Shown: piece by piece, positions 20,423 to 22,979 of the stretch
Position numbering within the stretch: position 1 is the stretch's first letter
How the letters are laid out: each line of letters begins with the position of its first letter
Source: an uncultured Clostridia bacterium
GTDB lineage: Bacteria; Bacillota; Clostridia; TANB77; CAG-508
Assembly: GCA_944393395.1 (NCBI GenBank)
Contig: CALYAB010000001.1
Coordinates: 1 to 56,436 of the forward strand
Reading direction: 5' to 3'
DNA length: 56,436 nt
Made by a program: the position numbers and the translations under genes
Notes under the pieces: model-generated
Told to the model about the DNA's origin: nothing
The model's input: only the letters and a program-made list of their open reading frames with translations
The model's database searches: none

Positions 20423-21508
20423 ATGTTAAAGGTAAAAAGTTTAAAAGAAGTAAGTAGTGAAATAGGTGAAGAGTTAGGAATCCAAAAAGAATTTAAACGC
20501 GAAAATGGTTATTTTATCAAAGATTCTATAAAACCAGAGATCAGGTTAATTGATAATAAGATACATGTTGATATGTTTCATAGAGATAAGAAGAATTCAG
20601 AATTATCTTCGTGGCACTTTAAATCTGAATCAGGATATAATTCTAAATATAAAAAAAATAAGCAATATGCTAACCATTATGCTGAATATATAGCATATTT
20701 AATTTTAAAACAATTGGGTAAAAAAGTTTGTAAAGCAGAGTTGGGAGAAATAGAAATAAGAAATAGGTATAGCAACAAACCAGTGGAAGTTCAAGGAGTT
20801 GTAACTCGTTATGAAATAGCTAAAAATGAAAGTATTAAAGAAATAAAAAGAATAGTTGAAGAATACAAAAGAGAAAATCCTGAAGAATATAAAGAGATGA
20901 CTGTAAAAGGAAAAACTAAGTATGAGAAAAATTATACTAATATAGAGATAATATTAAAATCATTAGAATATCTCTATACTAAAAATGGGCAAAAAGATAA
21001 AATACCAGGAATGAGAAAAGAGTTCTTCGATATGTGTATTTTTGATCTGATGTTTGCAAACAGAGATAGAGCTGATGATAATTTTGGAGTAAAAGTAAAT
21101 CAGGATACGAACGAAATAGAGTATTATGCGTTGTATGATAATGAGCAAATACTAGGTATGCAAGAAGAGAAAAAAGATATAGTAAGATATATGTCTAATG
21201 AAAAAGAATATAAAAGATTTAAAGAGAAATATTTAACATCTTTTATTGGAGTTCCAGAAGAGGTTCAAAGAACAACACCTGAAAAATTATTAAGACATAT
21301 GTTAGAAAATTATTATGAAGAAACTATAGATTCATTAGAAGACATAGGAAGATATAAGTTTTCTGATTTAGAAGAGGTTTTAGAAGTATGTCCAGAATTA
21401 TCAAAAGAGCATAAATTATTTGCTAAAAAAATTTTTATAGAAAGGCAAAAAGAAATTTCAAAAGTATTAAAAGAATATGAACAAAAGAAAGATGAACAGA
21501 TTAGATAG
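20423..21508 (+). CDS. HipA/HipT-like kinase-fold protein, paralogue 1 (DRADDN catalytic loop)
   Basis: RBS aaaggagaaaat then ATG 20423. ANHYAEYIAY.., FANRDRADDNFG (21055-21090) and YALYDNEQILG match the HipA_C-type GN.DRH..N ... P.YD pattern, with His replaced by Ala. Confidence 0.55.
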   Translation: MLKVKSLKEVSSEIGEELGIQKEFKRENGYFIKDSIKPEIRLIDNKIHVDMFHRDKKNSELSSWHFKSESGYNSKYKKNKQYANHYAEYIAYLILKQLGKKVCKAELGEIEIRNRYSNKPVEVQGVVTRYEIAKNESIKEIKRIVEEYKRENPEEYKEMTVKGKTKYEKNYTNIEIILKSLEYLYTKNGQKDKIPGMRKEFFDMCIFDLMFANRDRADDNFGVKVNQDTNEIEYYALYDNEQILGMQEEKKDIVRYMSNEKEYKRFKEKYLTSFIGVPEEVQRTTPEKLLRHMLENYYEETIDSLEDIGRYKFSDLEEVLEVCPELSKEHKLFAKKIFIERQKEISKVLKEYEQKKDEQIR

Positions 21509-21526
21509 TAAAATTGAGGTAGATGA

Positions 21527-21898
21527 ATGGAATATTTATATTTAAAGTGGATAGATTATAAAACAAATAAAAAATATTTGATAGGAGCATTATTTAGAGA
21601 TAAAGAAAAAAGAAAATATTATTTTAAAATGAGTAGAAGACATGTAGAAAAAGCAATAAAGGAAAAAGCTATATCTAAGGCATTACTTCCTTTTTATGAT
21701 TTAGACAAAATATATGAAAGTGATGAGATTTTTGCTATCTTTAAAGTAAGACTTCCTAAAATTGAAAAATTTTCTGAAGATGAGCTAAAAGATTTTCTAA
21801 AAGACTTAAATATGAAAGAATATGATGAATTTGAATATCTAAGAAAAACAAAAGGTAGATTAGTTACAGATAAATTTATATTAGAAGAGGAGAAATAA
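21527..21898 (+). CDS. HipS-like small protein (resembles the HipA N-terminal subdomain)
   Basis: KKYLIGALFRDKEKRKYYFKM .. LLPFYD..ESDEIFAIFKVRLP .. YLRKTKGRLVTDKFIL follows the pattern of the HipA N-terminal 'couple' domain. Its stop abuts the next start. Confidence 0.4.
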   Translation: MEYLYLKWIDYKTNKKYLIGALFRDKEKRKYYFKMSRRHVEKAIKEKAISKALLPFYDLDKIYESDEIFAIFKVRLPKIEKFSEDELKDFLKDLNMKEYDEFEYLRKTKGRLVTDKFILEEEK

Positions 21899-21899
21899 A

Positions 21900-22979
21900 A
21901 TGTATAAATTTCGAAATATTGATAGTTTTAGGCCTCAGGAATTTGAAGAAGTTGGAGAATTAAAGGGAAAAAGATGGTATATAGATGCACAGACAAATAG
22001 AAAGGGATTATTTAAACCTCAGAGACATGAATTCAAAGATAGAAAAGTTTTTTGTGCAAATCATTATGGTGAATTTGTGGGAAGTGTTATAGCAACAAAA
22101 GGAGGCAATGAAACTTGTAAAACAGAATTAGCTCACAATAACCAATATTATTCAAATATTTATAAAGAGAGAAATGGAGCCACTCCAGAAGAAAAAGATG
22201 GTTGCATAATATATTGTGAATTGGAAGAAGGAGATAATTTAGAACCAGGAGAAGTTACAATAGAAAAATTTAAAGAACAGAATAAAGAACTTTTTGAAGA
22301 GCTAACAAAAAATGATCAGAAGATAAGTAGAGCTAATGATAATATAGAAGTAATTTTGGCTTCTGTTGAATGTAGAGTAAGAGAAGGATACGAAGAAATG
22401 ATTGGAGAAGGCTCAGAAGATTATATACAATCAAGAATATTAGTAAATAAAAAAAGAATAATTAATCAAATGGTATATGATTGTTTATATGGGAATTATG
22501 ATAGGCATGATGAGAATTGGTCTATGCGTCTAAAAAGAAAAGGAAAAATAGATGTATATCCAATGTATGATAATGAAAGAGTACTAGGATTATATGAAAA
22601 TTTACAGTTTATAGAAAATGCAATAAATCAAGGGAAAATTAAAGAAATTTCAGAAGAAAAATTTTTTTCAAGGATGATGGTACCAGGAGAAAAGAAAAAA
22701 AATTCAACTTATAAAGATGTGTTAGGCTATTTAGTAGACAAATATCCTGAAGAGACAATAGAAGCAATTAAAAGAGAAACACAAAGAATTACACCTGTAA
22801 CTATAAGAGAAACTCTAGAAAATTGTGAAAGATTGCCACAAGAATATATTGAATTTGGAAGCAAAATGCATAAATATAGATATGATTTTGCAAGAGAGTT
22901 AGTAGAACGTAACAAAAAATATATCAAGGAAGAGTCACAGAAAAGAGAGATAAAGAGTATTATAGATGAAGAAAGATAG
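21900..22979 (+). CDS. HipA/HipT-like kinase-fold protein, paralogue 2 (canonical DRHDEN loop)
   Basis: GLFKPQ.., ANHYGEFVGSVIA, LYGNYDRHDENWS (22491-22520), VYPMYDNERVLG. The ATG lies 1 nt after the stop of the preceding ORF. Confidence 0.55.
   Translation: MYKFRNIDSFRPQEFEEVGELKGKRWYIDAQTNRKGLFKPQRHEFKDRKVFCANHYGEFVGSVIATKGGNETCKTELAHNNQYYSNIYKERNGATPEEKDGCIIYCELEEGDNLEPGEVTIEKFKEQNKELFEELTKNDQKISRANDNIEVILASVECRVREGYEEMIGEGSEDYIQSRILVNKKRIINQMVYDCLYGNYDRHDENWSMRLKRKGKIDVYPMYDNERVLGLYENLQFIENAINQGKIKEISEEKFFSRMMVPGEKKKNSTYKDVLGYLVDKYPEETIEAIKRETQRITPVTIRETLENCERLPQEYIEFGSKMHKYRYDFARELVERNKKYIKEESQKREIKSIIDEER

Follow-up and report, generated by a model that had tools for sequence, protein, structure and literature searches.

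Hip kinases are classic persistence toxins: HipA targets GltX and HipT targets TrpS. Relatives of these enzymes are now considered candidate phage-defence genes. Besides, CtkA from Helicobacter pylori has been described as a kinase that stands alone and enters host cells by translocation; neither a HipS-like partner nor a paralogue of it is known. This work deals with a cassette of three open reading frames (ORF1, ORF2 and ORF3) found in a stretch of 56,436 nucleotides (nt) from an uncultured Clostridia bacterium (contig CALYAB010000001.1 of assembly GCA_944393395.1, positions 1-56,436), the whole of which is called the window in what follows. In this cassette a small HipS-like gene lies between two genes coding for kinases of the HipA superfamily; domain identities, paralogy, coupling, layout, catalytic asymmetry and purifying selection are shown by the analysis. 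With moderate confidence, the cassette is interpreted as a Hip-type module of three parts, where a single HipS-like protein would control two kinases.

Ten Hip gene organisations have been described, each of them with a single kinase (Gerdes et al. 2021, PMC8262856). The nearest to the cassette are hipJS, composed of a kinase and HipS, and hipIN, composed of a kinase and a HipS-HIRAN protein; both are bioinformatic predictions, and their kinases (HipJ and HipI) have a reported length of 279-321 amino acids (aa) (PMC8262856). The HipS protein of hipJS is reported to group with the HipS of hipBST and with the N-subdomain of HipA (PMC8262856). HipS is an antitoxin homologous to N-subdomain 1 of HipA, and it has been shown experimentally that it blocks HipT by direct contact with the Gly-rich loop (PMC10627512). 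Related to this, the PADLOC system PDC-M03, which corresponds to hipIN, is one of 145 candidate defence systems predicted by guilt by embedding (bioRxiv 10.1101/2024.01.29.577857). No tandem or pseudokinase Hip arrangements were found in the literature searched. A preliminary description of this DNA, made from the sequence alone, had considered the three-gene layout as undescribed, which is correct in that hipIN, hipJS and PDC-M03 are all single-kinase systems, although close relatives were already known bioinformatically.

The three ORFs, as well as the motifs quoted in that description as common to the two larger ones, were all found on the + strand (Table 1). ORF1 starts at the same ATG as in the public gene calls. 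BLASTP aligns ORF1 with ORF3 over 303 aa at 26% identity (E=9e-26); they are thus paralogues and contain, among other shared motifs, ANHYAEY (ORF1, aa 83-89) and ANHYGEF (ORF3, aa 53-59). The stop codon of ORF1 is separated from the ATG of ORF2 by 18 nt, which include a GAGG ribosome-binding site. The translational coupling proposed between the 123-aa ORF and the second kinase was also supported: the TAA of ORF2 (21896-21898) is followed, 1 nt further on, by the ATG of ORF3 (21900), the GAGGAG ribosome-binding site is located within the final ORF2 codons, and the gap is conserved: with one exception, the 47 loci compared have gaps from -8 to +5 nt, mostly of 1 nt.

Table 1. Features of the cassette and its surroundings. 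Coordinates are those of the window; the last line gives the loci of the genome survey.
Feature	Position or locus	Strand	Remarks
Partial YhgA/Rpn-like protein	19552-20226		Upstream of ORF1; PF04754, E=3.6e-7
ORF1, upstream Hip/CtkA-like kinase paralogue with relaxed catalytic His	20423-21508	+	361 aa from ATG
ORF1 catalytic loop ANRDRADDNF (Ala in place of His)	21056-21085	+	ORF1 aa 212-221
ORF1 Mg-binding motif YALYDNEQILG	21125-21157	+	ORF1 aa 235-245; DNE kept in all ORF1-type proteins
ORF2, HipS-like protein (HipA N-subdomain-1 family) without HIRAN	21527-21898	+	123 aa
ORF2/ORF3 junction: GAGGAG ribosome-binding site, TAA, 1 nt, ATG	21887-21902	+	
ORF3, downstream Hip/CtkA-like kinase with full catalytic set	21900-22979	+	359 aa
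ORF3 catalytic loop GNYDRHDENW	22491-22520	+	ORF3 aa 198-207
ORF3 Mg-binding motif YPMYDNERVLG	22557-22589	+	ORF3 aa 220-230; Y, D, N, E invariant (alignment A3)
Sites of the TTGTGATATATAT box	20231-20339, 20398-20413, 13305, 29252, 37086, 37163, 39187, 40510, 40642		
Loci with the cassette or its remnants in the uvrB-uvrA interval	L001, L017-L021, L025, L027, L029, L030, L034-L036, L040-L050, L053, L057		

ORF1 and ORF3 are short kinases of the HipA superfamily that lack the N-subdomain and have CtkA as their nearest relative, a conclusion drawn from the matches to the PADLOC and CtkA profiles, from the fold of ORF3 and from the lack of any HipS-like region. The PADLOC profile PDC-M03A matches both proteins (E=1.9e-26 for ORF1 and E=1.2e-22 for ORF3), and so does phrog_8728. 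A profile constructed from 37 ORF3 orthologues reached CtkA (PDB 3akj) with E=1e-7, and it matched HipT(Lp) and HipA weakly and only in the catalytic loop. In Pfam, HipA_C (PF07804) scored 21.8 bits on ORF3, below its gathering cut-off of 30.5, many ORF3 orthologues having a precomputed match to this family; ORF1 gave no HipA_C match and a sub-threshold one to PI3_PI4_kinase (E=0.005). The HipA_C assignment of the preliminary description is thus sub-threshold for ORF3 by profile, but the HipA/HipT-type fold was confirmed with the AlphaFold2 model of this protein (predicted local distance difference test, pLDDT, 93; predicted template modelling score, pTM, 0.90). In Foldseek searches with this model, CtkA was the first match (E=3e-12, with a template modelling score, TM, of 0.8 normalised to the target). 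Next came HipA from E. coli and Shewanella and HipT from E. coli and Legionella (E ~1e-6, probability 1.00), and then type II phosphatidylinositol 4-kinases. D201 and D224 of ORF3 are placed opposite D155 and D179 of CtkA, respectively, in an alignment whose residues were counted by hand. A kinase fold can be attributed to ORF1 through its paralogy with ORF3. A HipS-like region was searched for in every kinase paralogue and not found, in agreement with the earlier statement that both kinases are devoid of the HipA N-subdomain. The NCBIfam search of the cassette proteins gave nothing useful, and a search with a combined ORF1 and ORF3 profile did not reach outgroup Hip families.

CtkA (JHP940; PDB 3akj, 3akk and 3akl) is the best match of ORF3 in terms of both sequence and structure and has the same DRHxxNW loop, although the sequence identity is only ~15%. 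Bearing in mind that every source genome is also gut-associated, ORF3, and perhaps ORF1, could be seen as CtkA-like host-directed effectors exported to gut cells, with ORF2 as a chaperone. We regard this as very unlikely: the N-termini of ORF1 and ORF3 are hydrophilic by eye, without a hydrophobic stretch resembling a signal peptide (no predictor was run), secretion-system genes are absent nearby, and HipT-type toxins are the ones characterised by such close coupling with a HipS-like gene.

Concerning ORF2, the half-match to PDC-M03B and the profiles of its relatives assign it, at the sequence level, to the HipN-type branch of the HipS-like proteins as a HIRAN-less member. The PADLOC profile PDC-M03B (HipS-HIRAN) matches ORF2 with E=1.1e-19 but only through positions 8-114 of ~232-262, and phrog_8026 likewise covers just its N-terminal part; there is no HIRAN domain in ORF2, as this coverage and the start of ORF3 1 nt past its stop indicate. 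An exhaustive phmmer search with ORF2 yielded 152 representative relatives, which fall into classes of ~110-140 aa and ~225-255 aa, plus fusions. The long homologues, composed of Couple_hipA and HIRAN (named HipN by Gerdes et al.), exceed the gathering score of Couple_hipA (PF13657), and the other fusions comprise kinase + HipS-like + HIRAN proteins (HipL-like) and RNase_T + HipS-like proteins. Pfam gave no match on ORF2 itself; 22 of its 40 short relatives matched Couple_hipA at E<=0.01, the best of them with 1.8e-8. The profile of the short relatives (A1) aligned with residues 9-92 of HipA (E=0.003) and with H. influenzae HI_0666 (E=0.017), which we take to be a HipS and whose PDB entry names an uncharacterised protein. 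The PDC-M03B match, the presence of Couple_hipA in the relatives and the profile match to HipA 9-92 give substance to the idea that the 123-aa ORF represents the missing HipA N-subdomain. The AlphaFold2 model of ORF2 has a pLDDT of 96, and the conserved aromatic residues in the region aligned with HipA are F69 and F72.

Some of the relatives of ORF2 show unusual architectures. P0129 (4318 aa) contains 29 separate matches to ORF2 residues ~65-121 (E=4e-19) and P0254 (799 aa) contains 6; it seems that these proteins contain tandem repeats of the C-terminal half of a HipS-like fold, or of a low-complexity segment resembling it. P0146 joins a HipS-like domain and an RNase_T exonuclease in one protein, which may be compared with the diDNase-HipA-HIRAN clusters (PMC11706625), and in P0261 an N-terminal region that matches ORF2 is followed by HIRAN and HD domains.

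The cassette can be compared with the described systems gene by gene. As in PDC-M03/hipIN, a kinase gene precedes a HipS-like gene (ORF1-ORF2), both kinases match PDC-M03A and ORF2 matches the HipS-like half of PDC-M03B; unlike them, ORF2 lacks HIRAN, a second coupled kinase follows ORF2, and the kinases have ~360 aa. The similarity to hipJS lies in the short kinase without N-subdomain 1 followed by a HipS-only gene, again as ORF1-ORF2, and genuine two-gene forms are found in the cassette clade (L038/L039, L058, L060); however, hipJS has two genes instead of three, and ORF2 scores far higher on HipN-type profiles than on Couple_hipA. HipBST from E. coli O127 and L. pneumophila resembles the downstream pair, with the HipS gene immediately upstream of the kinase gene and coupled to it, a kinase without N-subdomain 1 and, for the ORF3 model, a HipT-like fold. 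It differs from the cassette in several aspects: the HipB gene is absent here, the Gly-rich loop of ORF3 has no Ser, ORF2 seems to lack a Trp corresponding to Trp65 of HipS, there is an extra kinase paralogue upstream, and the sequence similarity of ORF3 to HipT is limited to the catalytic loop. Because neither the traits of HipBST (HipB and the Ser of the Gly-rich loop) nor those of hipIN (HIRAN and two genes) are found, the cassette stays outside every named system; an automated PADLOC run would probably flag it as PDC-M03.

In none of the contexts examined, that of the window included, does the operon contain or adjoin a helix-turn-helix (HTH) gene. The absence of an HTH antitoxin, already remarked in the preliminary description, was verified in the window, where the nearest HTH gene (25457-25789) is located 2.5 kb downstream, past pepD and a GNAT gene. 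This XRE-type gene was considered as a hidden HipB and rejected: the genes between it and the cassette are variable, it is a conserved neighbour of NlpC/P60 only in the sub-lineage of the window, and it is absent from the uvrB-uvrA context described below.

The distribution of the cassette was surveyed in one genome per GTDB species, which resulted in 47 loci (alignment A2), all of them from metagenome-assembled genomes of uncultured gut Clostridia, whose flanking ORFs were classed by phmmer. The survey was anchored on close ORF2 relatives, so kinases without a HipS partner are undetectable in it. ORF2 has matches in 187 clusters at 90% identity; 120 of these were listed, and almost all of them have 123 aa. 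An ORF1-type gene, a HipS gene and an ORF3-type gene follow each other on one strand in 37 of the 47 species-level loci, and one more is interrupted by the contig end; thus the layout noticed in the window is kept in the neighbourhood of its homologues. It persists down to ~50% ORF2 identity, where the kinases are 29-43% identical to those of the window. The three-gene cassette is therefore a genuine conserved operon and not a local accident, and its clade, entirely unannotated, occurs widely among Clostridia from the guts of animals and humans.

Other gene contents were also found in the same survey. A further paralogue with the kinase fold, X (~340 aa, e.g. L001:3786-4826), lies upstream of ORF1 in L001, L027, L040 and L042-L044, and is not present in the window. 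A two-gene form, HipS then X, appears as a second copy alongside the three-gene form in L051 (X at 4365-5390), L052 and L054, and L055 is another locus of this kind. ORF1 and HipS alone are found in L038 and L039; HipS followed by a kinase of 415-431 aa in L057 and L064, the latter with a 112-aa ORF1-type remnant; kinase-then-HipS pairs in L058, L060 (beside CRISPR-Cas) and L061 (on a mobilisable element with integrase and relaxase genes); and a lone truncated HipS in L050. Apart from these, a lone HipS-like gene coding for 121 aa with a weak Couple_hipA match (L063:4001-4366) is carried, without a kinase, by a phage-like contig of 60 kb. An RnlB-type antitoxin gene lies two genes downstream of it, and Thy1, DNA ligase and T7 Gp5.9-like genes are near. 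Its product may imitate HipS as an anti-defence protein of the phage.

Among the three genes, the strongest constraint is on ORF2, and both kinases evolve fast. The ratios of nonsynonymous to synonymous substitution (dN/dS, Nei-Gojobori) between related loci were 0.00-0.21 for ORF2, 0.11-0.60 for ORF1 and 0.17-0.73 for ORF3, values which indicate purifying selection and hence that all three genes are maintained. In the comparison of loci, ORF2 has 85% identity and the kinases 55-62%, and at a UvrB identity of 88% the figures are 64% for ORF2, 44% for ORF3 and 37% for ORF1. Such a constraint on ORF2 is what would be expected for a protein that has to fit two partners, while kinases that outpace the neighbouring UvrB behave like conflict genes.

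These data also bear on whether ORF1 is merely a functionless duplicate in decay, with ORF2-ORF3 as the real unit. The loss of the catalytic His in the window, the loop deletion of a sister allele and the mere 112-aa remnant of L064 agree with this explanation; however, ORF1 is full length in 37 of the 47 loci, and its other catalytic and ATP-binding residues are conserved. The range of its dN/dS includes the lineages without His, the value for the ORF1 of the window being 0.2-0.28 against orthologues, and this purifying selection largely refutes the explanation. We give it hardly any weight.

The catalytic residues differ between the two kinases. In the ORF3-type proteins the four core motifs (Gly-rich loop, ATP-binding Lys, D-x-H-x-x-N and Mg-binding Asp) are present and invariant across orthologues; the segments G-x-L-K-G-K-R-W-Y, LFKP, NHYGE, GNxDRHxxNW and YDNE are essentially unchanged, and the catalytic His is found in all 118 clusters. 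The Asp, Arg, Asn, Mg-binding Asp and Lys are retained in the ORF1-type proteins too, but the position of the His is occupied by H in 77 clusters, by N in 10, by S in 10 and by A in 2. The Ala of the window is peculiar to its lineage and fixed within the 90% cluster of its ORF1, in which two alleles of the same species have a 1-aa deletion in the catalytic loop (DRADNF). The X-type paralogues have lost the entire catalytic apparatus and are still linked to HipS. Hence the replacement of His by Ala reported in the preliminary description is real, but a pseudokinase nature is not a property of the family, in which orthologues carry H, N, S or A. Since ORF1-type proteins preserve the other catalytic residues and X has lost all of them, pseudokinase character is better seen as a trend, which is slight in ORF1 and has run to completion in X, than as a fixed property of ORF1.

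It is possible, though doubtful, that the cassette consists of one antitoxin neutralising two active toxins, which would differ in substrate as HipA and HipT do; ORF1 would then play no particular regulatory part, and the Ala version in the window would be a weakened allele. The conservation of Asp, Asn, Mg-binding Asp and Lys everywhere in ORF1-type proteins, the His in 77 of 99 clusters, the stand-alone ORF1 + HipS pair of L038/L039 and the purifying selection on ORF1 would be explained in this way, whereas other observations would not: three or more different residues have taken the place of the His in ORF1-type proteins, and none has done so in the 118 ORF3-type clusters, loop-deletion alleles exist, and the degenerate X shows that non-catalytic copies are retained.

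In the tripartite module that we favour, for which inhibition by ORF2, toxicity, target, trigger and the role of ORF1 are inferred, ORF3, which belongs to the HipA superfamily, is predicted to be an active Ser/Thr kinase. ORF2 would supply the missing N-subdomain as a separate protein, in a fixed proportion to ORF3 through translational coupling, and by analogy with HipS-HipT it would bind near the active site of ORF3 and keep the kinase inactive. Most likely ORF1, whose upstream position is that of the kinases in hipJS and hipIN, would bind the same ORF2. The catalytic loop of ORF1 is degenerating in the lineage of the window, so there it would be a regulatory partner or a sensor and probably not an effector. 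Once the brake exerted by ORF2 is released, ORF3 would phosphorylate an essential component, plausibly in translation like other Hip kinases, and the outcome would be a growth stop, as part of a toxin or abortive-infection response. The module is suggested by the existence of kinase + HipS-like pairs also on their own and by relatives having been flagged as candidate defence genes. The constraint on ORF2, the speed at which the kinases evolve and the stepwise disappearance of catalysis from the paralogues upstream would fit ORF2 as a hub for the effector ORF3 and the regulatory or sensor paralogues ORF1 and X. One HipS-like protein would then be common to two or three kinase paralogues, of which ORF3 is intact, ORF1 relaxed and X dead, and this graded series would be useful for the study of kinase recognition by HipS-type proteins and of toxin regulation by pseudokinases.

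A tentative variant of this scheme, which we consider conceivable rather than probable, is a switch gated by pseudokinases: ORF1 and X, in which catalysis has been abandoned to different extents, act as sensors or decoys competing with ORF3 for ORF2. If so, a trigger acting on ORF1 or X, for instance a phage protein or, in view of an ancestral position within the uvrB-uvrA unit, a DNA-damage signal, would shift HipS and free ORF3, and the system would represent a new logic among Hip toxins, with a paralogous kinase replacing HipB and HIRAN.

The genomic context has to be taken into account as well. In 24 of the 47 loci the cassette immediately follows uvrB and has the same orientation, and 3 more have uvrA or purC downstream. 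Some lineages have only short intervals here, with 3-138 nt separating uvrB from the cassette and 77-126 nt separating the cassette from uvrA, and in the uvrB-uvrA interval the cassette runs in the direction of both repair genes. The divergence of the cassette follows that of UvrB (Spearman ~0.8, from non-independent pairs), which suggests a long residence at the uvrB-uvrA site. This interval could be an integration hotspot, or the position could allow co-expression with a DNA-repair operon. Together with the presence in relatives of HIRAN, which binds DNA ends, the position might link DNA damage or phage DNA to translational shut-down. In 11 loci (L009:2744-8549 and ten similar ones) the cassette lies between the permease and the substrate-binding-protein genes of an ABC-transporter operon, so that it is able to insert within operons.

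A rather unlikely explanation of the uvrB-uvrA linkage is that the cassette encodes a split HipA acting as a long-resident stress-signalling kinase, expressed with uvrB-uvrA and with ORF2 as an obligatory structural or activating subunit, comparable to N-subdomain 1 inside HipA. The same-strand position after uvrB with gaps that are often short, the correlation with UvrB, the fusion of a HipS-like domain to the DNA-binding HIRAN in distant relatives and the lack of a defence-island context in the window are in line with it. Against it, the kinases have fallen to 37-44% identity where UvrB keeps 88%, the cassette has moved elsewhere (including the window and the middle of the ABC-transporter operon), it has decayed in L050 and L064, its content is variable (X and two-gene forms), and relatives are found beside CRISPR-Cas and on a mobilisable element. 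Rapid evolution, movement, decay and variable content fit accessory conflict genes better than housekeeping signalling.

Several observations weigh against the tripartite module itself. The surroundings of the cassette are housekeeping genes, and its inheritance between uvrB and uvrA appears to be mostly vertical; besides, scans of phage, plasmid and IMG/VR sequences with ORF2 or its alignment gave nothing. Such a pattern is less typical of mobile defence or toxin-antitoxin cassettes. When the ORF2 model was compared with the structures in PDB and with viral ones, no significant match resulted; in Foldseek none had E<0.4, and the only full-length alignments were with Shewanella HipA (TM ~0.5, probability 0.66). 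The sole Trp of ORF2 is W8, and none is apparent where HipS has its inhibitory Trp65. The Gly-rich loop of ORF3 (VGELKGKRWY) has neither Ser nor Thr in the window or in the orthologues, for which reason a control by autophosphorylation in the style of HipT is unlikely. Finally, the His is kept in ~78% of the ORF1 clusters and therefore a purely regulatory role of ORF1 does not hold for the whole family.

With regard to the window, uvrB and uvrA are absent from it, and the neighbours of the cassette are of housekeeping type, namely lspA, two rluD-like genes, a transglutaminase-like surface protein, pepD, GNAT, XRE-type HTH, NlpC/P60 and comEC. The Rpn-like gene upstream of the cassette is found in the window and in L015. 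The preliminary description had spoken of an accessory-looking spot; the Rpn-like gene and a repeat are indeed present, but the position is a derived one, the commonest site being uvrB-uvrA. In the segment 22977-23009, the M20 peptidase gene pepD starts with GTG at 23007, 27 nt past the ORF3 stop, with its own GGAGG site. No terminator was detected on the + strand between 19454 and 23300, in a promoter and terminator scan that is uninformative in this AT-rich DNA; given the 27-nt gap and the lack of a detected terminator, pepD may be co-transcribed with the cassette. The final residues of the pepD ORF are atypical, and there may be a frameshift near 24300.

Three copies of the box TTGTGATATATAT are located upstream of ORF1, one of them a perfect 15-nt palindrome enclosed by an outer inverted repeat and another beside the ribosome-binding site. 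The whole window contains 10 matches with up to 1 mismatch, compared with 0.85 expected, and upstream of the ORF1 orthologues the box is absent. It was considered as an autoregulatory operator of the cassette and rejected because of its absence at the orthologues and its dispersal through the window. The miniature inverted-repeat transposable element (MITE) reported previously is recognisable as a nested inverted repeat at 20231-20339, and its core box is dispersed across the window; the box is either a genome-wide repeat of the MITE or repetitive extragenic palindromic (REP) type or a site for a global regulator of the host.

Rfam and tRNA scans detected nothing near the cassette. Far from it, a glmS ribozyme/riboswitch was found on the - strand at 48807-48965 (RF00234, 86.7 bits). 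In the window comEC appears as two overlapping ORFs, 27343-28356 (DUF4131 and Competence) and 28289-29725 (Competence and Lactamase_B), a split which is likely due to a frameshift or a sequencing error, the orthologue in L009 being one gene of ~838 aa.

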